Below, one piece after another: positions 1,275-25,521 of a stretch of DNA of 41,230 nucleotides (the first letter of the stretch is position 1; each line of letters starts with the position of its first letter). Under the pieces are notes generated by a model. The model was given only the letters and a program-made list of their open reading frames with translations, made no database searches and was not told the DNA's origin. The DNA is from Synechococcus sp. (GTDB lineage Bacteria; Cyanobacteriota; Cyanobacteriia; Thermostichales; PCC-7336). Made by a program: the position numbers and the translations under genes. The stretch is taken from positions 1 through 41,230 of the forward strand of contig JBFRWD010000163.1 in assembly GCA_051439425.1 (NCBI GenBank). The letters run 5' to 3'.

Positions 1275-1309
1275 GTCGTACAGTTCATGGCTCGAATGGC
1301 GAGGTGAAC

Positions 1310-1714
1310 ATGGGTAGGCGAGCTAACGAAACGCAATCAGAGGTACTGGCAGTTCTACGTGGCCATCGTGGCCCGCTGTCTGCCTATGACGTGATCGGGG
1401 AGTTGCGTCAGGTCAGTCCGAAAATCGCACCGCCAACGGTTTACCGAGCGCTGGAAGCGTTGGCCGGACGAGGGCTGGTTCATCGTCTTGAATCGCTGAA
1501 GGCCTTCATCGCCTGCAAGCATAACGAATGCCAACATGCGTCGATCTTCGCAATCTGCGACGAGTGCGGCACGGTCGAGGAACGCTTTTCACCTGACTTG
1601 TTCGAGGAGCTTTCCCGCATTGCGGGGCAGTCTGGATTCATCTCGACGCGCCACGTCATCGAACTCCACGGTCTTTGTGCCTCATGTGGTGGAACGGGAG
1701 ACAACCTGGCATGA
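1310..1714 (+). CDS. zur: Fur-family Zn uptake regulator Zur, proteobacterial type (copy 1)
   Basis: SAYD...APPTVYRAL...VHRLES...C..H..F.ICxxCG.VEE...E.HG.CxxC motifs; GAGGTG RBS before ATG 1310. Confidence 0.88.
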   Translation: MGRRANETQSEVLAVLRGHRGPLSAYDVIGELRQVSPKIAPPTVYRALEALAGRGLVHRLESLKAFIACKHNECQHASIFAICDECGTVEERFSPDLFEELSRIAGQSGFISTRHVIELHGLCASCGGTGDNLA

Positions 1715-1818
1715 ATTCGCGTCGCAGACAAAGCCTGAGGCTTCTGATGCTTGGTGCTATCCACCGGATGACCGGTGCCTCATGGGTTGTGGCAGCGCTC
1801 TTGGCTGGGTTTTACTGA
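1711..1818 (+). pseudogene. Truncated copy of the 44-aa small membrane ORF
   Basis: MNSRRRQSLRLLMLGAIHRMTGASWVVAALLAGFY*; TGA replaces the TGG (Trp) of the intact copy at 22697-22831. Confidence 0.7.
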
Positions 1819-1940
1819 GCAATCTCCATGCCGGGAACCGATGACCACGTCCCGTCGGTCGATACGTTATTCGTTCACCCTAATTTAGCTTCCATGAGCT
1901 AGTTTTATCTCTGTTCAATCCACTGATTCTTGGTGTTTTT

Positions 1941-2960: not shown

Positions 2961-3074
2961 TATGCGGTCTTTCAGTCTCACTGTCGGGGACGAAAGACAG
3001 GCGGTTGCACCGCGATCGTTTAATCAAAAATGACTGAATTGATTGACTCGTTTTTCAATTACCCACAGGACCCC

Positions 3075-7851: not shown

Positions 7852-9781
7852 CTATGCCCTGAGTAACCGCAATCCATTCAGCGTTACCAGCAGTGTTGAG
7901 CCTTCATGGCCCAGCACTCCAGCCGGTAGAGTAAGTTCTCCCCAAAAATTAGCTACCATCAACAGGGCAATTGAGGTCAACGCCAGGGTGATGTTTTGCT
8001 GGATAATGCGTTGTGATTTTTTGCCGATGCGAATGGCCTGATCCAACTTGTCCAGACGATCTGCCATCAGCACAATGTCAGCAGTTTCTAACGCCACATC
8101 TGACCCAGCCCCACCCATGGCAATGCCGACCGACGCCTGAGCCAGAGCAGGGGCATCGTTGATGCCGTCTCCCACCATTGCTACCGTATGGTACTTATCC
8201 TGCAGGTTCTGAATGGCGGTGACTTTGTCCTCCGGCAATAAATCTGAGTAAACTTCATTGATGCCGATGCTGTGGGCAACAGTCTGCGCGGTGACCGCAT
8301 TATCCCCAGTGAGCATGACAGTTGCTGGAATACCCATTTGTTTTAGTTTGCTCAATAAACCCGCAGCTTGGGGACGCACCCGATCGGCTACCGCCAATAG
8401 CCCGACGATCTGCTGATGCTGGACGACCCAGACGATCGTTTTCCCCTCACTTTCAAGCTGTTGTCCGGCCTGGAATAGAGAAGTATCAATCGGGTCAGCC
8501 AGATCGTCCGAGACATAAGCAAGCTTGCCAGCGCGCGTGAACGCCCTTCAGTACCCCCACGATTCCCTGACCCACGTCAGCCTGAACAGCATCCATGGGC
8601 AATAAAGGAATGTTCCGCTCCTTTGCCGTTTGCACAATGGCTTGGGCAATAGGATGCTCTGAATAGACTTCCAGAGAAGCGATGATTTGCAACACTTGTT
8701 CTGATTGAAAAGCCGGTGCCGCCACCAGGTCACTTACTTGCAGAATCCCGGTTGTGAGGGTTCCAGTTTTATCAAAGGCAATCGCTTTTACCCGACCGAT
8801 AGTTTCTAGCTGGGCTCCGTCTTTGAACAAAATCCCTTGTCGTGCCCCCCGGGCAATGCCCGATAGCAAGGTCGGCATGATCGACGCCATCAGGGCACAG
8901 GGAGAGGCCACTACCAGAAAAATCAGCGCCCGGTAAATCGTCATTTCCCAACTCCAACCCAGGAGCAGGGGTGGCACCAGAGCCAGGACCAGACCTGATA
9001 CTACGATCAATCGGGCATATCCCCGCTCAAACCTTTCCAAAAATTGCTGGGAAGGGGGCTGGCTGGTTTTTGCCTGTTCAACCAGCCGAATCACTCGCTG
9101 AATCAGACTGCTTTCCGGCGGTTTGTGTAATTCCACCGTAAGTGCACCGCTACCGTTGATAGTGCCTGCAAACACTTCATCCCCTAGGGACTTTTCCACA
9201 GGAATCGACTCTCCCGTAATCGGGGCCTGGTTAATGGTGCTGTGGCCCGTTCTAATCAGCCCGTCGATGGGAATGAGTTCCCCGGGTTTCACAAGAATAC
9301 GATCTCCCACCTGCAAATCCTGAGTTGCCACCACCTGTTCCTGCCCTGGCAGCAATCGCCGCGCCGTATCTGGCGTCAGCTGCATCAAACTGCGAATATT
9401 TCGTTCGGTGCGGTGCATGGCAATGGTTTCTAAAGCACCACTAAAAGCGAAAATCAAGATGAGTACGGCCCCATCCACCAGCAGGTAAAACTGCCGCTGC
9501 CATAGCCCCAGTACTGCTGCCCCCACTGCCGCAATAATCATCAACAGGTCTACATCTAGTTCATGCTCTTGCCATAGAGTGGTCAGCCCCTCGCAAGCAC
9601 TCTCGTAGCCCCCGATCGCGTACCCGGCCAACAGTAGCGCGATCCCCAGCCCCACCCAACTCTCCTGCAGTGCCAACCCTCCCAGCAATGTCAACCCGGC
9701 GCACAGCATCGCTGCCAGCACCTCTGGATGGATATGTCTCCAGGAAAACACTCGCTTTCGCACCCTCATTACCAAGGCCAT
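7852..9781 (-). pseudogene. coaT: P1B-4 (Co/Zn) exporting ATPase, CoaT-like, split by a frameshift near 8530-8537
   Basis: TGES, SPC, DKTGTLT, SEHP in the 5' ORF; TGDN, GDGINDAPAL, HEGST in the 3' ORF. The 3' frame is open from ...GKLAYVSDD...EGKTIVWV...; likely start ATG 9781. Confidence 0.85.
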
Positions 9782-9811
9782 CAATCGAATCCAGCATTTT
9801 AGAGCCCCCTG

Positions 9812-9843
9812 AGCGTAAAGGTTGACATTGATGTTAATGTCAA
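9812..9843 (-). promoter_or_regulatory. MerR-type operator/promoter of coaT
   Basis: Inverted repeat TTGACATT-N6-AATGTCAA (9822-9843); minus-strand TTGACA, 20 bp spacer, TACGCT (9817-9812): the over-long spacer typical of MerR promoters. Confidence 0.88.
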
Positions 9844-9847
9844 GGAC

Positions 9848-10951
9848 ATGCTTACGATAAAAGACCTCACTCAAGCCGTCGGCCACGGCACCACCCCCCG
9901 CATGGTGCGGCACTACCACCAGATTGGGTTGTTGCCTCAACCCAGGCGTTCTGAGGGCAACTACCGCCTCTATACAGAAGTCGATGTGCAACGGCTAAAG
10001 GGGATTGTGGCGTTGAAACAACAGGGATTTCAATTGGCCCACATTAAGCAGATGCTGGACGCTCGGTCAGCAGCACCATCTGAGACGCTGGTTGGGCAAC
10101 TGCAGCAGCACTACCAGGTCGTCCTACAGCGCTTGACTCGGTTGCGCCAGACGGCCATTGCCCTGGAGGGGGTGATTGGGCGGGACCAGTCTTGCCAGTC
10201 GGTGCAGGCGGAGGCTCTGGCCCATTTACGACTATTGGACGTGGATGCGCAAACGGCCCAAACCCTGGCGGATGAACTCTGGCAACAACTGGATGAGGCG
10301 GCCGCTCATCATCCCGAAAATTTTCAGGAGTCTCTGCAACAGTTGTTACCCGATCTCTCTCGGCGTCCTGAAATTGAAGCCGATGTGTTGTCTCACCTGG
10401 TTTTGACCTGTGGTGATGTGGCTTTGGCTGCCTTTGTTCGGTTTAGCTCAGACGCGATCAAAGCAGCCCGCGAGTCTTTATCTACTGGTTGCAAGGTGAT
10501 TGGGGATATTCCTGCTGTGGTAACCAGTCTGGATCGGGTGCGTCTCGACCATCTGGGGTGCGACTGGCATACACTGATGGACGATCCCCATGTGATTAGT
10601 GCTGCCGATGCAGAGCAGGCTTTCTGGCAAGACACCAACTGGAAGAGACAACTGCAAGATTTGGGAGACGATAACATCTGGGTTGTCGGCTATGCCCCTT
10701 CGGTACTGATAGAACTTTGCAAGGCTATTGAAGCGCAGCAGTTGAAGCCAGCCCTGGTGATTGGTCTACCTATTGGATTTAGCCATGCCCCTGCTGCGAA
10801 GCGACAATTGATGCAGCTTAAGGTGCCCTACATCACCACTGAAGGAGCGGTTGGCGGTGGGTTAATGGCAGCTGTGGCGTTGAATCGGCTGGCGGCTTCC
10901 TTAATAGAGAAGCCTGACTGTCATTGTTATTTGCAGGAGGTGCGGGCTTGA
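9848..10951 (+). CDS. coaR: MerR-family regulator fused to a precorrin isomerase (CbiC/CobH)-like domain, CoaR-like
   Basis: MerR HTH (RMVRHYHQIGLL..RSEGNYRLY), CbiC-like LVIGLPIGF..A..AK..L and GGG..AA..LN, C-terminal CHC; divergent from the P1B-4 ATPase. Confidence 0.9.
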   Translation: MLTIKDLTQAVGHGTTPRMVRHYHQIGLLPQPRRSEGNYRLYTEVDVQRLKGIVALKQQGFQLAHIKQMLDARSAAPSETLVGQLQQHYQVVLQRLTRLRQTAIALEGVIGRDQSCQSVQAEALAHLRLLDVDAQTAQTLADELWQQLDEAAAHHPENFQESLQQLLPDLSRRPEIEADVLSHLVLTCGDVALAAFVRFSSDAIKAARESLSTGCKVIGDIPAVVTSLDRVRLDHLGCDWHTLMDDPHVISAADAEQAFWQDTNWKRQLQDLGDDNIWVVGYAPSVLIELCKAIEAQQLKPALVIGLPIGFSHAPAAKRQLMQLKVPYITTEGAVGGGLMAAVALNRLAASLIEKPDCHCYLQEVRA

Positions 10952-11101
10952 ATAGCCCGTAGCGGTAATTTTGCTAGTTTCAGTTCATAAGCACGCATGG
11001 ACTAAAATAATTACCTTTTTTATCGATCGTTTCCGGCCATAATCTCGCAAAGCTTCCTACGAAGTGATGATTTCCCAATACTTCATCTTTTTTGTTTGGA
11101 G

Positions 11102-11263
11102 TCAGCTAAATCCTTTCCCTTGGGTAGTTTCCCTCCACACTAGTACCTCCCCTTGGTAACCACTAGCAACAATCGCCCCTCCTGAAGGGTTCCAAGCGAG
11201 GCAAGAGAATCCGGCGGATGCATCTTCAAGGACTTGGGTCAGACGACTAGCTTGTTGATGCCA
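11102..11263 (-). pseudogene. Remnant 3' end of the WD40 gene (direct repeat of 18916-19074)
   Basis: Translates WHQQASRLTQVLEDASAGFSCLAWNPSGGAIVASGYQGEVLVWRETTQGKGFS* versus WHKASRLTQVLEGAAAGFSCLAWNPSGGAIAAGGSRGEVLVWKETTQGKGFG*. Confidence 0.92.
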
Positions 11264-11394
11264 GTCCAGAGAAACTAATACCCCTGCGGATATCGAGCCA
11301 GGCCAACTTTTAAAGCTGGCTCAATTCATTTATTGTGCAAGTGTTACCCATGTTAACTAAGAGTTAAACCGTGCCAATGTCCGCAGTGGTGTGG

Positions 11395-12192
11395 TCACTG
11401 TTTTACATTGCATTGTTGGGCATTGCCCCATGCTTTTGGAGAGGTCCCGTGGTGTTTGCGGAACTGGCGGATGAAGTAACCTGGATCGGTGTAACCACAG
11501 GCTGTGGCGATCTTATTGATAGAGCAATCGGACTGGGATATGAGGTGGCGAGCTTGAGCCATTCGTCGGGTGACGATCCACTGCTTGACAGTTCGGCCAG
11601 TTTGACTTCGGATTAAACTCGTTAAATAGGCAGGGGAATACCCAGCGATATTTGCGACATCTTCAAGCCGAATGGGCTGATGAAAATGTTCCTCGATGAA
11701 TTGAAATACAGGATCGAGGTGTGGGTGATTTGGGAAAATATAGTTCACCCCAGATTTGTCGGGGGCATGACCGGGCTGAGTAGGCGTTAGTGCGGTAGTT
11801 CGATGCGGCTTGTTCAACCTAGAGTACCTGCGTAAACGGGCAGCGATCGCTCCCAAGAACTGCTCGATTGTGCAGGGTTTAACCAGATAATCGTCTGCTC
11901 CTAAATCCATACCGATTCGTAGTTCGGACATAGTTGATTTAGCCGTCAGGAAGATAAAAGGGATATTTTCGGTTGCTTCCGATTGGCGTAACGATGAGAG
12001 TACTTGGTAACCGTCAATATCCGGCATCATGATGTCGCAAACGATTAAGTCCGGAGTATGCTGTTGAGCGAGATGCAATCCGTCAGACCCACAGCTAGCC
12101 CCCAAGGTCTGAAAGCCCTCAAAAGATAAGCAATTCAAAAAAAGCTTTCTCGTTTGGGCTTCGTCGTCAACGATGAGTATTGTTTGAGTCAT
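11395..12192 (-). CDS. Response regulator: receiver + AraC-type HTH
   Basis: ILIVDDE, PDLIVCDIMMP, FLTA, DDYLVKP; C-terminal LEDVA..AGYSPAYL and IATACGYTDPGYFIRQFRK..G.SP. Confidence 0.93.
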   Translation of the reverse strand: MTQTILIVDDEAQTRKLFLNCLSFEGFQTLGASCGSDGLHLAQQHTPDLIVCDIMMPDIDGYQVLSSLRQSEATENIPFIFLTAKSTMSELRIGMDLGADDYLVKPCTIEQFLGAIAARLRRYSRLNKPHRTTALTPTQPGHAPDKSGVNYIFPNHPHLDPVFQFIEEHFHQPIRLEDVANIAGYSPAYLTSLIRSQTGRTVKQWIVTRRMAQARHLISQSDCSINKIATACGYTDPGYFIRQFRKHHGTSPKAWGNAQQCNVKQ

Positions 12193-12382
12193 CTTATGAA
12201 GAGGCTTGTCTGTTAGTCTCTAACATACAAGCTGGCATTTTGTACGACTGATTGTTTACTCAGGCTGAAGAAGTTTCGTACCCGTCTCTGTAGTGAACTC
12301 TCTGAGAGGGATTGAAGTAGTGTAATCAGTTACTGTTTTCCATACACCATCCTGGTTTCGCTAAGGGCTAATTTTGTAGTTA

Positions 12383-13678
12383 TTGACATTGAATACGGCA
12401 ACGGAACAAGGCACGGAAACAACGGAACAAGGCATGGAAACACCAGATGCCCCCAGTGCCTTTGAGATGCAGTTAGGCGATTGGACATTGAATTCCCAAA
12501 CTCCCACCGAAAAACAACTGGAGATTTTGCGGCAGGAGCATCAGCTGATTCTGAATTCAGTGGGAGAAGGGGTATACGGCCTAGACATCAATGGGAACGT
12601 CACCTTTGTCAATCCAGCGGCAGCAGAGATGATTGGATGGGATATGGCCGATTTAATTGGTCAATCCATGCATGCCGTACTACATCACTCTCACAGTGAC
12701 GGTACGCATTACCCTCGCGAAACCTGCCCAATCTATGCGGCATTTAAAGATGGAGCTGTCCGCCGAGTTACAGACGAAGTGTTTTGGCGTAAGGATGGTT
12801 CGTCATTTCCGGTGGAGTACATCAGCACTCCGATGCGAGACGAGCAGGGAGGATTAGTCGGCGCTGTTGTTACCTTTCGCGACATTACCGAACGTAAGTG
12901 GGCAGAAACCGTGCTGCACCAAGCCAATGATGCATTAGAGCTGAAAGTGCAAGCTCGCACGGCTGAACTGTTTCAGGCCAACCAGAAATTACAGGAGTTG
13001 AACGATCGCCGATCGCGGTTTGTCTCTATGGTTTGTCACGAATTCCGCAATCCGTTAAACAACATTGCATTATCGGTTTCATCCCTACAACGATACGAGA
13101 AACAGCTCGCCACAGCCCAGAAACAGGATTATCTAGAGTCAATCGCCGTAAACATTAATCGTATGTCATCAATGCTCGATGACATTTTGACGATTGGCCG
13201 AATTGAAGTGAAAGGATTGAGTCCTACCCCTCAACCGATCGATCTCGTATCCTACTGCCAAGAACTCCTTGTAGAGTTACGCGAAACGACCCATCGCACG
13301 TTTCAGTTCAACTGTCGCCATTCCAAGCTGATGGTGGCTCTGGATAACCAGCTATTGCGCTCGATTTTGATCAACCTCTTAGATAACGCCATTTCTTACT
13401 CTCCCGAGCGTAGTGAAATTCAGCTCAAGCTATCGCGGCGCAAGCAGATCGTCACGCTTCAGGTCACCGATCGTGGTTTAGGGATTCCCGATGCCGAAAA
13501 GCCTCTGTTGTTCGAACCATTTCATCGGGGTCGCAATGTCAGCAATATTCCGGGGACGGGATTGGGACTGAGTATCGTCAAGCAATTTGTGGAATTGCTG
13601 AAAGGAACAATCGCCGTAAACAGCACGCTTGGAGTCGGTACTACATTTGTTGTGCGCATACCTCTGTCTGACTCTTGA
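12383..13678 (+). CDS. Soluble PAS-domain sensor histidine kinase (start uncertain: TTG 12383 or ATG 12434/12467)
   Basis: PAS (GEGVYGLD..G..TFVNPAA...RDITERK), H-box HEFRNPL, N-box NLLDNA, D.G.GI, FEPF.RG, GTGLGL; no transmembrane segment. Confidence 0.93.
   Translation: MTLNTATEQGTETTEQGMETPDAPSAFEMQLGDWTLNSQTPTEKQLEILRQEHQLILNSVGEGVYGLDINGNVTFVNPAAAEMIGWDMADLIGQSMHAVLHHSHSDGTHYPRETCPIYAAFKDGAVRRVTDEVFWRKDGSSFPVEYISTPMRDEQGGLVGAVVTFRDITERKWAETVLHQANDALELKVQARTAELFQANQKLQELNDRRSRFVSMVCHEFRNPLNNIALSVSSLQRYEKQLATAQKQDYLESIAVNINRMSSMLDDILTIGRIEVKGLSPTPQPIDLVSYCQELLVELRETTHRTFQFNCRHSKLMVALDNQLLRSILINLLDNAISYSPERSEIQLKLSRRKQIVTLQVTDRGLGIPDAEKPLLFEPFHRGRNVSNIPGTGLGLSIVKQFVELLKGTIAVNSTLGVGTTFVVRIPLSDS
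12399..12440 (+). repeat. 21-bp tandem duplication at the 5' end of the kinase gene
   Basis: CAACGGAACAAGGCACGGAAA / CAACGGAACAAGGCATGGAAA. Confidence 0.9.
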
Positions 13679-13737
13679 GCTTTTGCCCAAGGGCTCTCAG
13701 ACTGGAGGTAGCATTGCAGAGCACTTCACCGTAGCAG

Positions 13738-13779
13738 TTCGAAAAAAAGTCCTACTTTTTCGAAAAAACATCCAATTAC
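13738..13779 (+). promoter_or_regulatory. Candidate AraC-type tandem operator upstream of cynA
   Basis: Direct repeat with 21 bp period: TTCGAAAAAAAGTCCTACTTT / TTCGAAAAAACATCCAATTAC. Confidence 0.5.
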
Positions 13780-14168
13780 TTGGTGTGTAATGCCTGGTAA
13801 TTTAGCAAGCATTACATCTCGGCAATATCTTCTTTCTGCCTGTGACTGTTTACTTGTCAGAAAGGTAGCTATTTACTTCTGGGCACGCTGAGACTTCTAC
13901 TGCTGATGTAAGAGCAACTAAGGCATTATTTTTTTTTCGACGGCGAATACTTTAAAGTATAGAAATAGCCTGAGCTTTACAAATAAAATCAGAACATTTT
14001 CTCCTGATTGCTTCAGTCAGGGTAGCTAACGTTTACATTACTCTTGAGATGTAAATAATTGTATTTTCCTTTGATTGTAGATTTCTTGAAATCGTATCTT
14101 TGGCGACAAAAATGTTTTTCAATCTCGCATCTAATAGCATTTAGACTGAAAAGAAGGCTTCCGAAACT

Positions 14169-15809
14169 ATGCTATTGAGAAGATCGGGTAGTTCGCTCAA
14201 AGGTAATGATGCATCGGCGTATAGTGTCGAAAGGGTCCAGTCTTTCGAACAGGCATGCATTATTTGCGGCGGCGCCCACTTGTCTCAAGACCACTGGGAG
14301 TTTATGCAGTCGATGCCTGCAGATCCCGTCGATATGGTTGACGATCTTGCCAAGATGGGAGTGTACAAGTCGGAGGCATTTAATGTTGCTGATGCCATCA
14401 GTCAGGCTGAAGTCAGGAAGCAGCTCTTCTTGGCAATGGCATCGAAAGGCGATCCGAAACGGGAAAAGCTGATTTTAGATTTGGCTCGTCTTGCCGGTGG
14501 GTTAGACCAAGCTTTTGCGGCGGCCTTTGGTCCTCAAGCCGGTAATTTCTTCGGAGATGCTCGGCGGACGAGTGATTTTACTCGGCGACAATTTATTAAA
14601 AGCATTGCGGCTGGAGCAGCGATGCTTGCCCTTGCAAACTGCGGTTCGTCTCCCGATCAATCTCAAACTCCCGATCCAGAGCCAGAAGCCTCTGCTCCTG
14701 TCAACTTAGAGAGGACAGACCTCAAGATTGGGTTTATTCCGATCACCTGCGCATCACCGATCATCATGTCGGAGCCACTGGGGTTCTATCAAAAGCATGG
14801 CTTGAATGCTGAAGTTGTGAAAATGCCCAGTTGGGGGGCGGTACGGGATTCGGCGATCGCTGGAGAATTAGATGCATATCACATGCTCGCCCCGATGCCG
14901 ATCGCGATGACACTGGGGTTGGGTTCTAGTCCGTTTGGCGTCAAGCTAGCCAGTATCGAGAATACCAACGGTCAGGCAATTACCATTGCCAATCGCCACA
15001 AAGGTAACGTTAATGGCCCCGAAGACTTCAAGGGATTTGTACTGGGTGTGCCCTTCCCCTACTCGATGCACAACCTACTGTTGCGCTACTACTTGGCAAC
15101 TGGTGGAATCGATCCAGATCGAGATGTGACGATTCGGCCTGTACCGCCGCCCGACAGCATTGCCCAATTGGTTGCGGGTGACATTGATGGATACTTAATG
15201 CCCGATCCGTTTAACCAGCGGGCAGTGTTTGAAGAAGTGGGCTTTATCCATAAAATCACCAAAGAGTTCTGGCCCGGCCATCCCTGTTGCGCATTTGCGG
15301 CCAGCGATGAGTGGATTACGGCGAACCCCAATACCTTCCGCGCCCTGAATAAATCCATCATTGAGGCTGCAGGATATGCAAGCCAGTCGGAAAATCGAGT
15401 GGAAGTGGCCCAGGCAATTTCCGGACGAGCGTTTCTGAACCAGCCACCGGAAGTGGTTGAAGCCGTCTTGACAGGCAAGTTTGATGATGGGAATGGCAAC
15501 ATACGCGAAGTTCCCGACCGGATCAACTTCGACCCTTACCCGTGGCAGAGCTTTGCCAATTGGATTTCATCGCAATTGGTGCGCTGGGATTTACAGGGGG
15601 ATGGTAAAGCTGCAGTGGAAATTGAAGGCAATTACAACGAAGTTGGTACGGATATCTTCCTCACCGACCTAGCCCGAGAACTCGCTACAGAGCTGGGACA
15701 AGCTCCCCCTGATGAAATTTACAGAATTGAGCAGCTGGCTTACGACGAGTTCGATCCAGAAAATCCAAGTGAATATATCCAAGCTCAGATCGATAAATAC
15801 GGTTTGTAG
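14169..15809 (+). CDS. cynA: Cyanate ABC transporter substrate-binding protein (NrtA/CmpA family) with long N-terminal extension
   Basis: LKIGFIPITCASP, W..VRD, HML.PMP, ENTNGQAI, YSMHNLLLRYYLA, GHPCC; in operon with cynS. Confidence 0.88.
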   Translation: MLLRRSGSSLKGNDASAYSVERVQSFEQACIICGGAHLSQDHWEFMQSMPADPVDMVDDLAKMGVYKSEAFNVADAISQAEVRKQLFLAMASKGDPKREKLILDLARLAGGLDQAFAAAFGPQAGNFFGDARRTSDFTRRQFIKSIAAGAAMLALANCGSSPDQSQTPDPEPEASAPVNLERTDLKIGFIPITCASPIIMSEPLGFYQKHGLNAEVVKMPSWGAVRDSAIAGELDAYHMLAPMPIAMTLGLGSSPFGVKLASIENTNGQAITIANRHKGNVNGPEDFKGFVLGVPFPYSMHNLLLRYYLATGGIDPDRDVTIRPVPPPDSIAQLVAGDIDGYLMPDPFNQRAVFEEVGFIHKITKEFWPGHPCCAFAASDEWITANPNTFRALNKSIIEAAGYASQSENRVEVAQAISGRAFLNQPPEVVEAVLTGKFDDGNGNIREVPDRINFDPYPWQSFANWISSQLVRWDLQGDGKAAVEIEGNYNEVGTDIFLTDLARELATELGQAPPDEIYRIEQLAYDEFDPENPSEYIQAQIDKYGL

Positions 15810-15841
15810 CCCTCAGCTGATTAAGGTCCTAGGTTTCAAGA

Positions 15842-16666
15842 ATGACAACGAGTCAAGAGATTTCGTCACAAATGCCAGCTCAAAAGAAAGTTGAGCTGGG
15901 TGAAAATACCAAAGCATCGCTAATTTTCCTTCTGTCTCTGGGGCTGCTGCTCCTGTTCTGGGAACTCAGCACGAAATGGTCGGATGGCAGAGGCATGCCA
16001 CCTGCTTCTTTGACCCTAAAAGAGCTGTGGTGGTGGCTAACTCACCCCTTTTTCGACAATGGTCCCAATGATTTGGGCATTGGTTGGAACTTGTTGATTA
16101 GCCTGCGCCGTGTTGCTATTGGGTATATCGCTGCATCGGCGATTGCCGTTCCGATCGGGGTGTTAATCGGAATCTCACCGATTGCATCTAAAGCCTTCAA
16201 TCCCTATATCCAGTTGCTGAAACCGGTGTCCCCTCTGGCATGGTTGCCGTTAGGGCTCTACATCTTTAGGGATTCAGAGAAGACCGGTGTCTTCATTATC
16301 CTAATCAGCAGTATCTGGCCGACTCTCGTGAATACGGCCTTTGGTGTTGCGAATGTAAGCCAGGAATATCTAGATGTTGCAAAGACCCTGGGGGCTTCAC
16401 GATTACGCACCATTCTTAAGGTGATTGTGCCTGCCGCATTGCCCAATATTATGTCTGGCCTGCGCATCAGTATGGGAATCTCCTGGCTGGTGATTGTGGC
16501 AGCAGAAATGCTGTTGGGAACAGGATTGGGTTACTTCATCTGGAATGAATGGAATAACCTGTATCTTCCCAATATTTTGGTGGCAATTTTCGTGATTGGT
16601 TTAGTGGGTCTTATTCTCGATCAGATCTTTGCTTTGCTCGAAAACTTAGTCTCATTTGGGCGGTAA
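15842..16666 (+). CDS. cynB: Cyanate ABC transporter permease (NrtB family)
   Basis: GPNDLGIGW...SLRRV..G, LKPVSPLAWLP, GLRISMG..WLVIVAAEML. Confidence 0.9.
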   Translation: MTTSQEISSQMPAQKKVELGENTKASLIFLLSLGLLLLFWELSTKWSDGRGMPPASLTLKELWWWLTHPFFDNGPNDLGIGWNLLISLRRVAIGYIAASAIAVPIGVLIGISPIASKAFNPYIQLLKPVSPLAWLPLGLYIFRDSEKTGVFIILISSIWPTLVNTAFGVANVSQEYLDVAKTLGASRLRTILKVIVPAALPNIMSGLRISMGISWLVIVAAEMLLGTGLGYFIWNEWNNLYLPNILVAIFVIGLVGLILDQIFALLENLVSFGR

Positions 16667-16671
16667 CAATC

Positions 16672-17565
16672 ATGAATACTGCTGTTGGCGCTTCTCCCTC
16701 GAACATGGTTATGGATACGTCTCCCAATGCTCATTTGAGCTTGCGCCATGTCTCGAAAGTTTTTCCGGGTAAACGCGGGTTTGGGCTGTGGCCCTCGCGC
16801 AAGAAATCCCCTGACTTTGTGGCGATTGACGACATTAGTCTGGATATCGAGCCGAATACATTTGTCACCATTATTGGCCCTTCTGGTTGCGGTAAATCGA
16901 CCCTGCTCAACATCGTTAGTGGCTTGAGCCAAGCGTCTTCAGGCAGTGTCCACATGGATGGGCAGCCTATTACCGGCCCTGGCCCCGATCGCGGCATGGT
17001 GTTTCAGAGCTATGCCCTGATGCCCTGGATGACTGTGGCGGAAAACATCGATTTTGCTGTTGCCACGGTGTATCCCAAGTTGACGGCGGCAGAGCGTCTC
17101 AGGGTGGTGCACGACAACATCCATTTGGTGGGGTTGACGGGGGCTGAGAAGAAGCACCCTCATGAACTGTCTGGGGGGATGCGTCAGCGGGTCGGCATTG
17201 CTCGTGCGCTAGCGATCAATCCAAAGGTACTGCTGATGGATGAGCCGTTCGGTGCGCTGGATGCCCTGACCCGTGGATATCTCCAAGATGAGATTGAGCG
17301 GATTTGGGAGCAACATCGCAAGACGGTCATCATGATTACCCACAGCATTGATGAGGCTCTGTTGCTGTCCGATCGGATTGTGATGATGAGTCGCGGTCCG
17401 GCGGCCACAATTGCTCGTGTGCTGGATGTTCCCTTTCCCCGACCACGCGATCGCTCAGCAGTTGAACACCATCCCGACTATCTGCCCCTCAGAACCGAGA
17501 TGGAAGAGCATCTGTACCGCGAAACCCGCGTTGTCGAACAGGCTCGCGTGCGAGCAAAAAGTTAG
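16672..17565 (+). CDS. cynD: Cyanate ABC transporter ATPase (NrtD family)
   Basis: GPSGCGKST, LSGGMRQR, LLMDEPFGALD, ITH. Confidence 0.9.
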   Translation: MNTAVGASPSNMVMDTSPNAHLSLRHVSKVFPGKRGFGLWPSRKKSPDFVAIDDISLDIEPNTFVTIIGPSGCGKSTLLNIVSGLSQASSGSVHMDGQPITGPGPDRGMVFQSYALMPWMTVAENIDFAVATVYPKLTAAERLRVVHDNIHLVGLTGAEKKHPHELSGGMRQRVGIARALAINPKVLLMDEPFGALDALTRGYLQDEIERIWEQHRKTVIMITHSIDEALLLSDRIVMMSRGPAATIARVLDVPFPRPRDRSAVEHHPDYLPLRTEMEEHLYRETRVVEQARVRAKS

Positions 17566-17695
17566 TGCTAGCGATCGATCGCGTCCCTGCAACATGCCGA
17601 GCTTTGACATAGTCGCTTGGCATTGCCCATCTGTCCGAACCTAAGCTCGGGCCGAACCCAAGTTTGAATCGATTTACGAAAGGAGTGATTAACTC

Positions 17696-18139
17696 ATGGC
17701 TATCGCAGAAATTACCGAGAAGCTACTTGCTGCTAAAAAAGCGAAAGGACTGACCTTTGAAGATTTAGAGAAAGTGTTGGGATGTGACGAAACTTGGATT
17801 GCTTCGGTGATTTACCGGCAAGCCAGTGCATCTCCAGAGGAAGCTAGTAAGTTAGTTGCAGCGCTGGGTTTACCGGAAGAGATGGGTGAAATCCTGACCG
17901 TTCCTCCCTTGAAGGGTGGTCTAGATCCCGTCATTCCCACCGATCCGCTGATCTATCGCTTTTATGAGGTGATGCAGGTTTACGGTATGCCCATGAAGGA
18001 TGTGATTCACGAGAAATTCGGGGATGGCATCATGAGTGCGATCGACTTCACCATTGAGGTGAATAAAGTGGAAGATCCAAAAGGCGATCGCGTTCAAGTG
18101 GTAATGTGTGGAAAATTCCTACCTTATAAGAAGTGGTAG
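17696..18139 (+). CDS. cynS: Cyanase (cyanate hydratase)
   Basis: [39 protein letters not shown]. Confidence 0.97.
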
Positions 18140-18164
18140 GACTGTTGAACGTTCCTGATTTTTG

Positions 18165-18192
18165 GGAGGCCGAGTATACGTACTTGGCCTCC
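18165..18192 (+). terminator. Stem-loop after cynS
   Basis: GGAGGCCGAGTA-TACG-TACTTGGCCTCC; weak U tail. Confidence 0.65.
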
Positions 18193-18340
18193 TTCAGTTC
18201 AATAATGGTGCTTTAAAATTAGAACCTTTTATTGATTATTCGCGGCAAAAGTTAACCTATTTTGCAAGCAGGATTTTTATCGGGTATGAGATAGAACTAA
18301 GTATTCGATTCACCGAAGACCGTTAGTTTTCTCTTTTGCT

Positions 18341-18814
18341 ATGACGACTGAATCAAAACCTCCATTTCCCCCCTTTGATACTGCAGCTGCGGCTAAAAAA
18401 GTTAGGCTGGCTGAGGATGCATGGAATAGCCGAGATCCTGAGAAGGTTGCCCTCGCCTATACAGTCGATAGTGTGTGGCGAAATCGGGCTGAATTTATTC
18501 ATGGTCGCCAACAAATTGTAGAGTTTCTAACTCGAAAATGGAGTAAAGAGCTTGACTATCGATTAATCAAAGAGCTGTGGTTGGCAGATGGTAACCGAAT
18601 CGCTGTTCGCTTTGCTTACGAATGGCACGACGATGCCGGTTTTTGGTTCCGGGCATACGGGAATGAGAATTGGGAATTTGATGAATTTGGGCTAATGAAG
18701 CGCCGAATTGCCAGTATTAATGATGTCCCAATCGCAGAAAGCGATCGGAAATATCACTGGCCGCTGGGTCGACGACCTGACGATCATCCAGGATTGTCAG
18801 ATTTAGGGTTTTAG
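18341..18814 (+). CDS. DUF1348 (NTF2/SnoaL-like) protein
   Basis: PPFPPF...[41 protein letters not shown]. Confidence 0.9.
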
Positions 18815-18915
18815 CCAATCAAACATAAGACTATGAATGATCCGAGGTAAAACTGTTGGCCCCCCTGCAATCGATCTGCCGATCTAGGGAAAGAGAATCG
18901 AGTCCGGATTCCTTC

Positions 18916-19986
18916 CTAGCCAAATCCTTTCCCTTGAGTGGTTTCCTTCCACACCAGTACCTCCCCTCGGCTACCACCAGCGGCAATCGCCCCTCCTGAA
19001 GGGTTCCAAGCGAGGCAAGAGAATCCGGCAGCGGCACCTTCAAGGACTTGGGTGAGGCGACTCGCTTTATGCCAAAGGCAAAGCCAGCCATCTTCGGCGA
19101 CGGAGGCCAGCAGGAGTGACTGGGGTTGGAACGCGATTGCTCTGACCATTCCTTGATGCAAGTCCAATACCTGGGCATTCCAGCCAACTGACGGGTCGCG
19201 GTCTTTTGTCCAGACAACAACGTCTTCACCACTGATAGAAGCTAAGAGGGGGGCATCACCAGTTTTTTTGCGCATTGACCAGGCAAGCTGCCGGATTTTG
19301 CCCGGAAAGCCCTGCATGCGCCAGGGGTGGGGATGGTCCTCCTCCCAAACCACGAGGGAGCGATCGTTACAACCAGAGGCAAGGTAGAAGCCATCGGTTG
19401 ACCAGGCGATCGCTCCACTGGCACCTCCGATCTCTTGCACGGTTGGGTCATCGTCCCAATCGCTTCGCTGCCAGGTTTGAATACTCTGATTTCCGCTGAG
19501 GGAGAGGCGATTGCCCTGCGGGTGCCATGCTAAATCGAGCACCGAGGAGAACTCGAAATTTAGGGTGGCGATAACCGATTGGGTGGCGGCATCCCACAGC
19601 TGGGCATAGCGCCCAAGGTTGAAGGCGAGTTCGGGATGTTGGGGATTCCATTGCAGGCGATCGATCCAAGCACGCTCATGCTCTAGAGTTGCGAGCAAGA
19701 TGGGTGTACTGCCATCCAGTCGCCAGATCCACACGGTTCCCGACTGACCCCCTGCCGCCAGAAAAGCACCATTGGCGGATATTGCCAATGCATCCACCGA
19801 TTCTCCCTGCGCCACCTGCAACAGGGTCATTTCACCCGTATTCTTGTCGAACCGCGCCACCTCTCCTGCGGCGGAACTGGCGAACAGCCATGCTCCGTCC
19901 GGTGACCAGGCGATCGCCGTCACGTAATCCGACAATGTCGTGTTCCACAGGGGTTTGAAAAGTTTCTGTCTATTAGATTTCGGCAT
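18916..19986 (-). CDS. WD40-repeat protein (start ATG 19986 or TTG 19995)
   Basis: Repeated AWSPDG/WNPQ/WHPQG/WSTDG/FQPQ blades; directly downstream of cobW. Confidence 0.9.
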   Translation of the reverse strand: MPKSNRQKLFKPLWNTTLSDYVTAIAWSPDGAWLFASSAAGEVARFDKNTGEMTLLQVAQGESVDALAISANGAFLAAGGQSGTVWIWRLDGSTPILLATLEHERAWIDRLQWNPQHPELAFNLGRYAQLWDAATQSVIATLNFEFSSVLDLAWHPQGNRLSLSGNQSIQTWQRSDWDDDPTVQEIGGASGAIAWSTDGFYLASGCNDRSLVVWEEDHPHPWRMQGFPGKIRQLAWSMRKKTGDAPLLASISGEDVVVWTKDRDPSVGWNAQVLDLHQGMVRAIAFQPQSLLLASVAEDGWLCLWHKASRLTQVLEGAAAGFSCLAWNPSGGAIAAGGSRGEVLVWKETTQGKGFG

Positions 19987-20082
19987 GGGCGGCAATCACA
20001 AGTCTTCTACCCCCAGGATTGTTGCTGGGTTAGGTATCGCTCTAAAGCACCATTTGGGACCTATCTAAGATTCCAAATGGCA

Positions 20083-21069
20083 TTAATAGCTCACCACACA
20101 AGCCCGAAAGTCTTCCGCCAGGTTCATTTGCTCTAGATCGCGACCGATGAAAACCAGTTCATTCTTGCGGGACTCGTCCGGTTTCCAGGGACGATCCTGA
20201 CGACCATCAAACAGCATGTGCACCCCCTGAAAAACGAAGCGGTGGTCTTCTCCGGCAATGTTGAGGATGCCTTTCATCCGAAAAATATTTGGACCATGTT
20301 CGCGTAGGAGTTGGCTGAGCCAATCGTTGAGCTTATCGCCATCCAGTTCCCCCGACTCAACCAGGGCCACAGACCCCACGGTTTCGTCATGCTCGTGCGC
20401 TGCTTCGTTGAGAAACTCAGGGTCGATTTGCAGTGCGTTATTCAAGTCAAACGCTTGAACTCCCAACAGGGCATCCATTTCGATTTGCGCGTCGCGGGTG
20501 CGGTGGATTTTAGCAATCGCATTCATCCCACGAATCCGCTGCTCCAGTTGAGCTAGCTCTTCCTCCGTCACGAGGTCAACCTTATTCAGCAAAATCACAT
20601 CGGCAAAAGCAATTTGCTCCACGGCTTCTTCCGCTTCCCAGTGCTGCCAAATGTGACGGGCGTCTACCACAGTCACCACAGCATCCAACTGAGCTTTTGC
20701 CTGTACCTCGTCATCCATAAAGAAGGTCTGAATGACTGGAGCTGGGTCTGCCAACCCTGTCGTTTCAATCACTATATTATAGAACTTGTCGCGCCGCTTC
20801 ATTAAGTTTCCAATGATTCGAATCAGGTCGCCTCTCACCGTGCAACAGATGCAGCCGTTATTCATCTCAAAAATTTCTTCATCCGCATCCACCACCAACT
20901 GGTTGTCGATACCCACTTCGCCAAATTCATTCACAATGACCGCCACCTTCTTGCCATGTTCGTAAGTCAGGATGCGGTTCAATAACGTTGTTTTCCCAGC
21001 TCCTAGGTAGCCAGTAAGCACGGTCACAGGCACCGTTGTGTTGTCGGTGGGATTGATGGCCGCAACCAT
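20083..21069 (-). CDS. COG0523/CobW-family GTPase without His-rich insert
   Basis: GYLGAGKTT, NEFG, GCICC, ETTGLADP, RMKG, QGVH; AGGAG RBS before ATG 21069. Confidence 0.95.
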   Translation of the reverse strand: MVAAINPTDNTTVPVTVLTGYLGAGKTTLLNRILTYEHGKKVAVIVNEFGEVGIDNQLVVDADEEIFEMNNGCICCTVRGDLIRIIGNLMKRRDKFYNIVIETTGLADPAPVIQTFFMDDEVQAKAQLDAVVTVVDARHIWQHWEAEEAVEQIAFADVILLNKVDLVTEEELAQLEQRIRGMNAIAKIHRTRDAQIEMDALLGVQAFDLNNALQIDPEFLNEAAHEHDETVGSVALVESGELDGDKLNDWLSQLLREHGPNIFRMKGILNIAGEDHRFVFQGVHMLFDGRQDRPWKPDESRKNELVFIGRDLEQMNLAEDFRACVVSY

Positions 21070-21092
21070 ATGCAACTCCTAAAGGTTGGCGA

Positions 21093-22700: not shown

Positions 22701-22831
22701 ATGGACCTCGCAGACAAAGTCTGAGGCTTCTGATGCTTGGGGCTAGCCACCGGATGCTCGGTGCGTCACTGGTTGTAGCAGCGCTCTGGGCTGGGTTTTA
22801 CTGGGCGACCTCCATGTCGGGGGGACGATGA
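22697..22831 (+). CDS. 44-aa small membrane protein, below the ORF-track cutoff
   Basis: MNGPRRQSLRLLMLGASHRMLGASLVVAALWAGFYWATSMSGGR*; ATGA overlaps with both the zur stop and the znuC start. Confidence 0.8.
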   Translation: MNGPRRQSLRLLMLGASHRMLGASLVVAALWAGFYWATSMSGGR

Positions 22832-23568
22832 ACCACGCCATCGCATTCAAAAACCTCACGCTGGGTTACGATCACCAGCCGGCCGTAATTCAACTTCAAA
22901 CCGAAATTACTGAAGGTAGCCTGACCGCCATTGTCGGACCGAACGGCGCAGGCAAATCCACCATGTTGAAAGGTATTGTCGGCACGCTTTCGCCGCTCTC
23001 CGGGCAGGTGTCCTTCGGGACGATCGATCGCGCCAATATTGCCTATCTGCCACAACAATCAGAGGTCGATCGCGCCTTCCCAATGTCCGTGGTCGATCTC
23101 GTCGCGATGGGGCTCTGGCGTGAGGTTGGCCCCTTCGGCAGCCTCGGACGCACCTACCAGGCGCGCATTGCCGAAGCAATCTCGGCTGTGGGGTTGGAGG
23201 GCTTTGAGGCGCGCGCCATCGGAGCATTGTCTGGCGGGCAACTGCAGCGCGCTCTTTTCGCTCGTCTCTTGCTGCAGGATGCGAGTCTCGTGTTGCTCGA
23301 CGAACCCTTCACCGCGATTGATGCCCGCACGATGGTCGACTTGATCGGCGTTGTCACTCGCTGGCACGGTGAGGGGCGTACGATTCTAGCCGTGCTGCAT
23401 GACTTCGATCTAGTTCGCGCACATTTTCCCCGAACGCTGATGCTGGCACGCAAACTTGTCGCCCACGGGCCAACAGAAGCCGTTCTTACCGCTGAGAACC
23501 AGTTCCGCGCCCGCCAAATGTGCGAAGCCTGCGACGGTCCGCCGCATACGTGCGGTAGGAGTGCCTAA
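22828..23568 (+). CDS. znuC: Zn/Mn ABC transporter ATPase (ZnuC/AztA-like)
   Basis: GPNGAGKST, YLPQ, LSGGQLQR, LLDEPF; C-terminal CEACDGPPHTC. Confidence 0.88.
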   Translation: MNHAIAFKNLTLGYDHQPAVIQLQTEITEGSLTAIVGPNGAGKSTMLKGIVGTLSPLSGQVSFGTIDRANIAYLPQQSEVDRAFPMSVVDLVAMGLWREVGPFGSLGRTYQARIAEAISAVGLEGFEARAIGALSGGQLQRALFARLLLQDASLVLLDEPFTAIDARTMVDLIGVVTRWHGEGRTILAVLHDFDLVRAHFPRTLMLARKLVAHGPTEAVLTAENQFRARQMCEACDGPPHTCGRSA

Positions 23569-24443
23569 TGATTTGGGAAGCTCTTATTACCCCCTTCGCC
23601 GATTTCGGCTTCATGCGGCGCGCCCTGCTCGGCTGCATCGCGCTCTCGGTCAGTTCCACGCCAGTGGGCGCCTTCCTGATGCTTCGGCGCATGAGTTTGA
23701 CCGGGGATGCCATGGCGCACGCAATCTTACCCGGCGCCGCTGTTGGCTATCTTGTGGCGGGCCTCTCGCTCGGCGCCATGACGACTGGCGGGGTAATTGC
23801 CGGCATGGCAGTAGCGTTGCTGTCGGGCTTTGTCTCGCGCGCGACTGCGCTGCGTGAGGATGCCAGCCTTGCCGCCTTCTACCTGATCTCGCTTGCGCTC
23901 GGTGTGCTGATCGTCTCGACCCGAGGCAGCAATGTGGATTTGATGCACATACTCTTTGGCACGGTACTGGCACTCAATGACGCAGCGTTGATCCTGCTTT
24001 GCTCGATCGCGAGCCTCACCATTTTCACTCTTGCACTTTTTTTCCGACTGCTGGCGATCGAATGCGCCGATCCACAATTCCTGCGCTCTGTGAGTGGGCT
24101 CAGTGCGGTAACGCATTTCACCTTTCTCACGCTGGTCGTGCTAAACCTTGTCGGCGGTTTCCACGCCCTCGGCACGTTGATGGCAGTCGGAATCATGATT
24201 CTGCCTGCCGTGGCGGCGCGGTTTTGGAGCGCCAGCATTGGCGGACTGATCGGGGTGGGTGTGGCTGTTGCCATGCTTTCAAGCCTGAGCGGCCTGTTGC
24301 TCTCCTTCCATTACAGCCTGCCGTCCGGGCCGGCGATCGTCCTCATGGCGGGTATTGCCTACGGGGTGTCGCTGGTGCTCGGACCAAATGGCGGCCTTGT
24401 CGCGCGCAGACTCTCCCCTCGCCCTCAACGAAATCTAAATTGA
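23568..24443 (+). CDS. znuB: Zn/Mn ABC transporter permease (ZnuB/AztB-like)
   Basis: FMRRAL, RRMSLTGDAMAHAILPG, DLMHILFG, LPSGPAIV. Confidence 0.9.
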   Translation: MIWEALITPFADFGFMRRALLGCIALSVSSTPVGAFLMLRRMSLTGDAMAHAILPGAAVGYLVAGLSLGAMTTGGVIAGMAVALLSGFVSRATALREDASLAAFYLISLALGVLIVSTRGSNVDLMHILFGTVLALNDAALILLCSIASLTIFTLALFFRLLAIECADPQFLRSVSGLSAVTHFTFLTLVVLNLVGGFHALGTLMAVGIMILPAVAARFWSASIGGLIGVGVAVAMLSSLSGLLLSFHYSLPSGPAIVLMAGIAYGVSLVLGPNGGLVARRLSPRPQRNLN

Positions 24444-24462
24444 AACCTCTAAAGAGACCATC

Positions 24463-25521
24463 ATGACTACTCGCAAAAAAATCCTACTAAAAACTGCAGC
24501 TGCCTTTGTAGCCTCGTGCTTCGTCGCCCCAATAACAGCACTGGCAGACGAGCCAATCCCCGTGGTTGCCACGTTCTCCATTCTGGGCGACATGGTGGAA
24601 CGCATTGGCGATGAGCACGTGGCCGTGACAACGCTAGTTGGCCCCGGAGGTGACGCTCATGTTTACCAGCCAACCCCGGCTGACGCCCAGGCCGTGCAAG
24701 GTGCTGAGGTTATGGTTGTCAACGGCCTAGAATTCGAGGGATGGCTTGACCGTCTTGCAGAAGCAGCGGAGTTTGACGGCGCGTTGGCCGTAGCTACCAC
24801 CGGAGTTGATGCGATCTCCTCAGAAGATGAGCACGGTGATGAGCACGACGAGCATGCCGAAGAAGACCATCATGACGAGGATGGTGAATTACACACCGAA
24901 GAAGACCATCATGACGAGCACGAGGAAGACCATCATGACGAGGATGGTGAGTTACATGCCGAAGAAGACCATCATGACGAGCACGAGCACGGTGCCTTTG
25001 ACCCTCATGCTTGGTTGAGTCTGGAGAACGCTGTAATTTACGTCGATAACATCACCGCTGCTCTTGCTAAGGCAGATCCCGAGAATGCTGACATCTTTTA
25101 TGAAAACCGCGCGGCCTATGTGGAGGAGATTGAAGCCCTCGACGCAGATATCCGTGCCATGATCTCTGCCTTGCCCGAGGACAGGCGCACTGTCGTTACC
25201 TCTCATGACGCGTTCCAATACTTCGGCAGCGAGTACGGCGTGATGTTCCTTGCGCCGCAGGGTATTAGTACCGAAAGCGAGGCTTCGGCGCAGGACGTGG
25301 CCCGTCTGATCGAGCAGATGCGTGCTGACGATATCCCCGCAGTATTTATGGAAAACGTTGCCGACCCGCGTTTGTTAGAACAGATTGCGGACGAAACCGG
25401 CGCTAGCATCGGCGGAACGCTCTATCCTGAAGCGCTTTCTGAGGCGGACGGTCCAGCTGCAACCTACCTCGATCTGATGCTCCATAACGCTACGACTCTG
25501 TCCACAGCGCTCGGATCGTGA
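24463..25521 (+). CDS. znuA: Zn ABC transporter substrate-binding protein with His/acidic loop
   Basis: Signal peptide, VVATFSILGD, DAHVYQPTP, NGLEFEGW, DPHAW, TSHDAFQYF. Confidence 0.92.
   Translation: MTTRKKILLKTAAAFVASCFVAPITALADEPIPVVATFSILGDMVERIGDEHVAVTTLVGPGGDAHVYQPTPADAQAVQGAEVMVVNGLEFEGWLDRLAEAAEFDGALAVATTGVDAISSEDEHGDEHDEHAEEDHHDEDGELHTEEDHHDEHEEDHHDEDGELHAEEDHHDEHEHGAFDPHAWLSLENAVIYVDNITAALAKADPENADIFYENRAAYVEEIEALDADIRAMISALPEDRRTVVTSHDAFQYFGSEYGVMFLAPQGISTESEASAQDVARLIEQMRADDIPAVFMENVADPRLLEQIADETGASIGGTLYPEALSEADGPAATYLDLMLHNATTLSTALGS
24862..24987 (+). repeat. 63-bp tandem duplication in the ZnuA His loop
   Basis: Units 24862-24924 and 24925-24987; GAAGACCATCATGACGAG occurs four times (EDHHDE x4). 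Confidence 0.92.

Follow-up and report, generated by a model that had tools for sequence, protein, structure and literature searches.

Introduction

Cyanate is both a nitrogen source and a toxin, arising from the breakdown of urea and carbamoyl phosphate. Its genes are controlled in Escherichia coli (cynTSX) by the LysR-type regulator CynR, and in Pseudomonas (cynABDS) by CynF, a sigma-54-dependent regulator; both are one-component systems. The cyanobacterial genes for nitrogen assimilation, cynABDS among them, are generally ascribed to NtcA, which is the only regulator named for cynABDS in the table of a 2026 review, and an iModulon study places cynABDS in its NtcA module. Here we describe a cyanate locus on a contig of Synechococcus sp. 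(GenBank assembly GCA_051439425.1, contig JBFRWD010000163.1, positions 1 to 41,230 of the forward strand), the whole 41,230-nucleotide (nt) stretch being referred to below as the window. In this locus the genes for a soluble histidine kinase and an AraC-type response regulator stand divergently beside cynA, cynB, cynD, cynS and a gene for a DUF1348 protein. Comparison with related loci leads us to propose that the pair is probably a two-component system dedicated to cyanate use, in which the phosphorylated regulator would activate cynABDS and DUF1348 from a conserved site.

Gene content of the locus

The genes and sites on which this proposal is built are the following, in window coordinates.

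11395-12192, minus strand: response regulator (265 amino acids, aa), receiver plus AraC-type double helix-turn-helix (Response_reg 9.9e-27; HTH_18 4.2e-22; HTH_AraC in 2 stretches)
12383-13678, plus strand: soluble histidine kinase (431 aa) with one PAS domain (HisKA 2.1e-15; HATPase_c 1.3e-27)
12671-12736, plus strand: His/Cys stretch of the kinase PAS domain, residues 97-118, peptide HAVLHHSHSDGTHYPRETCPIY
13742-13803, plus strand: candidate regulator-dependent cynA promoter, from a weight matrix and an extended -10 element
14169-15809, plus strand: cynA-like gene for a substrate-binding protein precursor (546 aa) of the CmpA/NrtA family (NMT1_2 2.6e-75)
15842-16666, plus strand: cynB-like ABC permease (TIGR01183, 213 bits against a cut-off of 209.05)
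16672-17565, plus strand: cynD-like ABC ATPase (TIGR01184, 330.3 bits against a cut-off of 291.8)
17696-18139, plus strand: cynS, cyanase (TIGR00673, 210 bits against 113.3; NF002773, 215.7 against 150; both Pfam cyanase domains)
18341-18814, plus strand: DUF1348 protein with an NTF2/SnoaL-like fold (PF07080, 2.2e-65)

An earlier reading of the same DNA, made from the letters alone (the original prediction), had described a divergent regulator/kinase pair directly upstream of cynABDS-DUF1348, and open reading frames and family scans recovered every one of these genes in that arrangement. The regulator and kinase genes diverge from an intergenic region at 12193-12382, and the five genes from cynA to DUF1348 share the strand of the kinase gene, from which cynA is separated by a gap of 490 nt. 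In the family scan the permease and ATPase exceeded the curated cut-offs for NrtB- and NrtD-type subunits of nitrate/cyanate/bicarbonate ABC transporters, and the cyanase was matched over its full length above both of its curated cut-offs. The binding protein resembles the solved structures of NrtA (2g29) and CmpA (2i48) at about 1e-48; its assignment to cyanate is provisional and is drawn only from its operon with cynS, in 61 of the loci described below.

The kinase has the features of class I histidine kinases, with H219 in the sequence VCHEFRNP invariant among 24 aligned sequences. The regulator falls in the class that joins a receiver to an AraC-type output, and its receiver residues D9, D10, D53, T83 and K105 are all present. 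We counted the intact state of these phosphorelay residues in both proteins in favour of a two-component reading.

Linkage of the pair to cyanate genes in other genomes

To find relatives of the kinase, a profile made from the 24-sequence alignment was searched against species-level genomes, which gave 371 stretches; the best 80 (L001 to L080) were analysed with at most 10 kb of flanking DNA, and their gene content was scored by tblastn with the window proteins, counting matches of at least 50% identity. At least 120 close relatives of the kinase (63–91% identity) were present in Leptolyngbya-like cyanobacteria, Nodosilinea, Phormidesmis, Halomicronema and Acaryochloris. Acaryochloris marina MBIC11017 and Nodosilinea nodulosa PCC 7104 are among the strains with the cluster. 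The regulator gene was divergent from the kinase gene in 79 of the 80 loci, at 53–78% identity, and in the remaining locus the kinase gene lay at a contig edge. We found cynA in 69 loci, cynB and cynD in 65 each, and cynS in 61. No cynA was seen in the other 11 loci, and in nine of these the sequence stops fewer than 700 nt past the regulator gene, so that cyn genes accompany the pair in 69 of 71 informative loci.

The order of the genes is not the same throughout. The commoner layout, seen in 67 loci, has cynABDS behind the regulator gene and on the same strand as that gene, and the window and L001 have it behind the kinase gene; in L013 a binding-protein gene lies behind the regulator gene at the contig end, together with a second paralogue. 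Other recurrent neighbours were rarer, with WD40 genes in 15 and CobW genes in 16 of the 80 loci. The original prediction had asked whether this PAS subfamily co-locates with cynS in other genomes, and had named a lack of linkage between the pair and cyn genes as grounds for giving the idea up; the linkage is there, in nearly every informative locus and in two gene orders.

A conserved direct-repeat site upstream of cynA

Word counts showed that AAAGTCCTA occurs in 37 of the 69 cynA upstream regions, and this word was used as the anchor for an alignment. The aligned element is a bipartite direct repeat, (A)AAGA-AAGTCCTA followed after 13–15 nt by T(G/A)(A/G)TCC(A/G)A. Over 66 sites the spacer measured 13 nt in 23, 14 nt in 41 and 15 nt in 2, and an extended -10 element, TGnTAnnnT, lay exactly 19 nt past the second repeat in 44 of the 66 sites that scored at least 16 bits. 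In the window, repeat 1 (AAGTCCTA) occupies 13747-13754 and repeat 2 (ACATCCAA) occupies 13768-13775, 21 nt apart from start to start, and the extended -10 (TGGTAATTT, 13795-13803) also begins 19 nt past repeat 2. The repeats would be centred at about -59 and -38 from the inferred transcription start near 13810, some 7 nt past TGGTAATTT, and the -35 position (13775-13780) has 3 of 6 matches to consensus. The site precedes cynA in both gene orders. A candidate considered before it, TTCGAAAAAA repeated 21 nt apart, was dropped because it occurred in only 2 of the 69 upstream regions; the overlapping AAGTCCTA/TCC repeats were conserved instead.

A weight matrix was built from 60 cynA sites, with the window and L001 left out of the training set. 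Applied to the 41-kb window, it returned a single outlier, at 13742-13778 on the plus strand and directed toward cynA, with 25.6 bits; the next match in the window reached 11.6 bits, and the best in 20 shuffled windows reached 17.0 bits. Over 1.31 Mb of loci, both strands considered, there were 85 matches of at least 16 bits: 66 before cynA, 12 before free-standing DUF1348 genes, 5 directly behind the regulator gene in loci whose contig breaks off there, and 2 in other positions. Neither the DUF1348 matches nor those near contig ends belong to the set on which the matrix was trained. As the matches fall before cynA and DUF1348 and not before the regulator or kinase genes, the site defines a small regulon. 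The 2 remaining matches lie upstream of rbcL-rbcX-rbcS (L017, 16379-16417; L043, 12269-12307), both at 18.1 bits and thus near noise, and may reflect chance or shared ancestry.

Activators of the AraC family usually have a layout in which direct repeats spaced by two helical turns adjoin the -35 position. The predicted site has this class II geometry, with direct repeats about 21 nt apart and the proximal one abutting the -35 of a weak promoter. This layout, together with the fact that the regulator is the sole conserved AraC-family gene of the locus, makes the regulator the candidate binder.

Between the window site and cynA lies an unusually long, A+T-rich leader of about 360 nt (13804-14168), which only L001 shares; in the other loci the site is mostly much nearer to cynA. 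An Rfam search of 10900-19100 at E ≤ 1 returned three weak, irrelevant matches, with no riboswitch or known RNA in the cynA leader. A scan for consensus promoters and terminators did not rise above shuffled sequence, with 11 promoters against 8.8 and 13 terminators against 9.1.

Relation to NtcA

The original prediction had reported no canonical NtcA box (GTA-N8-TAC) upstream of cynA, and for this window the statement holds. There is no GTA-N8-TAC between 11 and 19 kb, all 5 matches of the window being located at 29–35 kb, and the window cynA lacks the arrangement of NtcA-activated promoters, a box near -41.5 upstream of a TAN3T -10. Among the relatives, 7 of the 69 cynA upstream regions contain the box, at scattered positions.

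Of 79 relatives, 26 have an exact copy of GTA-N8-TAC at a consistent place in the region that separates the regulator gene from the kinase gene (for example GTATAGGGTGATAC; the loci include L040, L044, L060, L061 and L069), compared with 6.8 on average and at most 13 in shuffled sequence, an excess that is inflated by the close kinship of many of these genomes. The corresponding region of the window, 12193-12382, has no such box. NtcA may act above the two-component genes in that subclade, in a two-tier circuit from which the window is excepted.

The kinase and its PAS domain

The kinase consists of a variable N-terminus, the PAS domain (residues 46-177, nt 12518-12913; 54-168 in the family scan), a DHp helix and an ATPase domain. 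Its highest 19-residue hydropathy value is 1.3, indicating that it has no membrane helix and is soluble. In the structural model a long DHp helix (169-237) is followed by an alpha/beta domain, and the model of the whole kinase matched generic PAS kinases only (VicK/WalK, YF1 and HK853). The 5' end of the kinase frame contains a tandem duplication of 21 nt (12399-12440, 95% identical) that precedes the start of most homologues, and translation may begin instead at the ATG of residue 18 or 29.

Constraint within the protein is strongest in the PAS domain, where mean column identity is 86% (66 sequences), compared to 66% for the whole kinase (24 sequences). Residues H97, H101, H102, S103, Y110 and C115-P-I-Y118 are invariant over the 66 sequences, while H104 and H109 vary even among cyn-linked kinases. 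The single PAS domain with a His/Cys motif that had been described earlier is present, as the peptide at residues 97-118 listed above. The models show this stretch as a short helix (96-99) and a strand (101-104), which a loop connects to the beginning of a further helix (116-123). H97, H101, H102 and C115 fall where other PAS domains have their cofactor pocket. The motif may hold a metal or heme, or it may be structural.

The model of the PAS domain by itself (predicted local distance difference test score, pLDDT, 86.7) is nearest among solved folds to CPS_1291, PA0861, LOV domains, NifL and the heme sensors FixL and DosP. These matches are generic, with identities of 16–27% and TM-scores (template modelling) of 0.59–0.75 across the matches listed, and they point to no particular cofactor. 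Neither the kinase sequence nor the PAS profile, when searched against the sequences of the PDB, brought up a solved relative with the His/Cys motif.

A search of 1.84 billion representative proteins with the PAS profile gave 189,045 matches, 8,813 of them at E ≤ 1e-30, with multi-PAS proteins prevailing among the highest-scoring ones. The motif HH[ST]-x8-14-CP was present in 87 of the best 150 representatives, often two or three times in a multi-PAS protein. A fuller form can be written as H-x3-HH-[ST]-x2-(D/N)G-x2-Y-P-x3-C-P; tandem copies of it are frequent, and the proteins concerned reach 4,799 aa. Judged from these sequences, the motif characterises a very large subfamily of PAS domains and has no specific connection with cyanate. 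The suggestion that it points to cyanate thus fails on its spread through the subfamily and on the variability of H104 and H109.

DUF1348 and the N-terminal domain of CynA

Two further conserved parts of the system are DUF1348 and an N-terminal domain of CynA. In the relatives the DUF1348 gene is located behind cynS in 28 loci and apart from it in 17, and 12 of the 17 separate genes have a site of their own (L010, L013, L015, L016, L018, L021, L023, L025, L031, L032, L067 and L076). DUF1348 is a probable member of the cyn regulon on this evidence. It is a domain of unknown function with a solved structure (2imj); the only papers found to use the name concern fungal genes, two of them dealing with cercosporin resistance in Cercospora and one with Fusarium oxysporum.

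The CynA precursor begins with a domain at about residues 24-135, which is followed by a twin-arginine pair (R139-R140), a lipobox (L155-A-N-C158) and the NMT1_2 domain (180-418). The domain, of about 110 residues, contains C30-x2-C33-x3-H37-x4-H42, followed by conserved helical-looking blocks such as AFAAAFGPQAG-FF. A conserved folded domain ahead of an export signal is an odd arrangement, and a shorter, 498-aa gene call for cynA would cut the Cys/His motif. The domain is conserved in 66 distinct CynA sequences of L001 to L080 (window residues 1-158, nt 14169-14642), and 269 proteins of a large collection carry it, the 120 listed being binding proteins of 448–574 aa. It had no match in Pfam or the PDB. 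Structural look-alikes from an atlas search were set aside, as the best scores, 0.76 and 0.75, were below the level of a lead.

Because it precedes the twin-arginine and lipobox signal, the domain would stay at the cytoplasmic face. We consider it a very doubtful idea that the domain, as a signal anchor or a cleaved membrane fragment, reports the synthesis, export or ligand state of CynA to the kinase PAS domain, making the CynA precursor a co-sensor of external cyanate.

Proposed mechanism and alternative explanations

With its single PAS domain the soluble kinase would detect a signal in the cytoplasm and then autophosphorylate H219, and the phosphate would pass to D53 of the AraC-type regulator. 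A dimer of the regulator would bind AAGTCCTA and ACATCCAA, the two direct repeats spaced by 21 nt, and switch on cynA-cynB-cynD-cynS-DUF1348, so that cyanate is taken up and converted to CO2 and ammonium. Gene content, catalytic residues, linkage and site geometry are observed; from them we infer that the regulator is the protein bound at the site, that it activates and does not repress, and that cyanate is the signal.

Several observations weigh against this proposal. The His/Cys motif, being generic to a large PAS subfamily, gives no chemical tie between the sensor and cyanate. The set of 80 loci is confined to related thin filamentous cyanobacteria and Acaryochloris, and common descent accounts for part of the linkage. 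Two informative loci keep the pair with no cyn genes: in L016, ureA, ureB, ureG and ureD follow the regulator gene (427-3014, minus strand), and in L054 (1880-8773, minus strand), which also has no site, it is followed by a small open reading frame, a TPS-domain protein and a different, NMT1-type ABC transporter. The count of 66 sites before cynA is partly circular, the matrix having been trained on 60 of them, and three cyn-linked loci (L014, L017 and L045) score below 16 bits. In the window itself the site is 422 nt before the cynA ATG, far more than in most relatives, consensus-like promoters are found closer to the gene (for example at 14032-14059), and repeat 2 departs from consensus at 3 of 8 positions.

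These points bear differently on the alternatives. The direct repeats could be bound by another factor while the pair regulates something else, its adjacency to the cyn genes being inherited synteny. The restriction of the loci to one broad cyanobacterial lineage is consistent with this, as are the recurrence of WD40 and CobW genes, the retention of the pair in L016 and L054, and the absence of a site copy between the regulator and kinase genes of the window, which leaves no visible autoregulation. We nevertheless regard it as highly improbable. The cyn genes stay adjacent although their position relative to the pair has switched, and they do so in 69 of 80 loci, compared with 15 to 16 of 80 for the other neighbours; L016 retains the pair together with DUF1348 and a site that stands only before that gene; and the site is of a type that suits the AraC family, of which the regulator is the only member conserved at the locus. 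It is also conceivable that the regulator binds the site as a repressor, sitting over the -35 region until released by a signal, as repeat 2 (13768-13775) abuts the -35 position in a geometry that could equally block RNA polymerase. This is improbable, given that an extended -10 with a -35 of 3 matches in 6 is, by the general rules for promoters, typical of those that depend on an activator.

If the regulatory link is real, cyanate itself may well be the cue, and we favour it tentatively as the most economical one, since the regulon is a single pathway of uptake and breakdown. The alternative cues are a redox or gas signal borne by a cofactor, or a signal relayed from the transporter. On these, the pair would still control the cyn genes. 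The kinase would either use a cofactor bound in the His/Cys pocket to sense a general state of the cell, be it redox, a gas such as oxygen, metal or the balance of carbon and nitrogen, or take its signal from the transporter in the way that PhoR depends on Pst/PhoU. The occurrence of the motif in most of the 150 best representatives and its repetition in multi-PAS proteins, the presence of heme sensors (FixL, DosP) and flavin-binding domains (LOV, NifL) among the nearest folds, the lack of any membrane or periplasmic part in the kinase, and the conserved extra domain of CynA on the cytoplasmic side of its export signal are consistent with such a role. We consider this rather unlikely, because regulators that stand beside a single operon for uptake and breakdown usually sense the substrate; moreover, the motif is in no solved structure, which leaves no cofactor to assign, and the folds matched are generic PAS folds at low identity.

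Origin and surroundings of the block

The remaining features concern the borders of the block.

11104-11253, strand not assigned: left copy of a 150-nt direct repeat, a stray copy of the 3' end of a WD40 gene
18918-19067, strand not assigned: right copy of the repeat, within the 3' end of the WD40 gene
18916-19995, minus strand: WD40 gene

The block had been described as bounded by repeats, and we confirmed this: the two 150-nt copies are 88% identical and form the longest repeat of the region. The left copy is 90% identical to the WD40 3' end of L001, which itself has no left copy. Compared with the DNA of L001, the window is 89–90% identical from the kinase gene through CobW and only 71% identical in the regulator gene, and the G+C content of the block (0.45–0.53) is lower than that of its flanks (0.54–0.57). 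The end of a target gene repeated directly on both sides is the pattern that would be left by single-crossover integration of a circular piece carrying a fragment of that gene. These observations suggest that the module, or at least its left part, was recombined in from a relative. A simple inversion was rejected as the source of the gene order in the window, as the stray WD40 fragment is in the wrong orientation for it.

The surroundings resemble a neighbourhood for zinc or metal economy, with two CobW/ZigA-like GTPases, a MerR-CbiC fusion and a ZnuABC-type transporter (1941-2960, 9848-10951, 20083-21075 and 22828-25521). A P-type ATPase is apparently split into two frames on the minus strand (7852-8397 and 8495-9991), with the E1-E2 ATPase domain and the start of the hydrolase in one and the remainder of the hydrolase in the other; unless this is a sequencing error, the gene is frameshifted or a pseudogene.

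Significance and comparison with known systems

We found no description of two-component control of cyanate genes in the full-text literature, in a search that left out most subscription journals, where a description is possible. One candidate, PMC13505874, was set aside, as the cyanate and two-component terms that it contains are unrelated. The suggestion of an undescribed pathway that senses cyanate or a related ligand therefore stands in part: the linkage, the site before cynA and the lack of a published description in the sources covered favour it, and the motif as a pointer to cyanate has been lost. What we propose is a classical phosphorelay with AraC-type output, newly assigned, on comparative grounds, to cyanate genes and given a defined cis-element.

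If the proposal is correct, the phosphorelay would add control at the level of the substrate to genes that have been ascribed to NtcA, and the kinase would be a candidate for the first cyanate-responsive histidine kinase. DUF1348 would be placed in a cyanate regulon, and there would be a functional handle on the very large H-x3-HH-[ST]...C-P subfamily of PAS domains, for which the PDB sequence search gave no solved structure. The promoter and regulator could possibly serve as an inducible switch for filamentous cyanobacteria.

In its architecture the pair equals other cyanobacterial pairs of a PAS kinase and a receiver-AraC regulator, for example that of the scytonemin system in Nostoc punctiforme. 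The kinase core (residues 194-428) was best matched by NCBIfam NF045595, the scytonemin sensor kinase, at profile positions 399-635, with 247.9 bits against a cut-off of 865. Because the score is far below the cut-off and covers the core only, we regard the kinase as related to the scytonemin pairs and as standing outside that family. Its sensor part differs, with a single PAS domain in 431 aa compared with a profile of 637 positions, and so do the target genes. PhoR, which acts with PstSCAB-PhoU, and other transporter-coupled kinases likewise have a cytoplasmic PAS domain and no extracellular sensor, and control the uptake of a nutrient; in contrast to PhoR, the present locus has no PhoU-like gene, and coupling to the transporter is hypothetical here.

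Among the systems that control cyanate genes, those of CynR and CynF share with this locus a dedicated regulator beside the cyanase genes, and they are induced by the substrate. They differ from it in that a kinase and a receiver-AraC regulator form the phosphorelay here, there is no carbonic anhydrase gene, and DUF1348 is predicted to be co-regulated instead. The NtcA-dependent cynABDS genes of Synechococcus elongatus PCC 7942, and the cynS gene of Synechocystis PCC 6803, correspond in operon content, with the same set of a CmpA/NrtA-type binding protein, permease, ATPase and cyanase, likewise in a cyanobacterium. Where those systems have NtcA at the cyanate genes, the window has an AraC-style direct repeat and the adjacent pair in place of GTA-N8-TAC before cynA, and the boxes between the regulator and kinase genes of a third of the relatives (26 of 79) would put NtcA above the pair and not at cynA.

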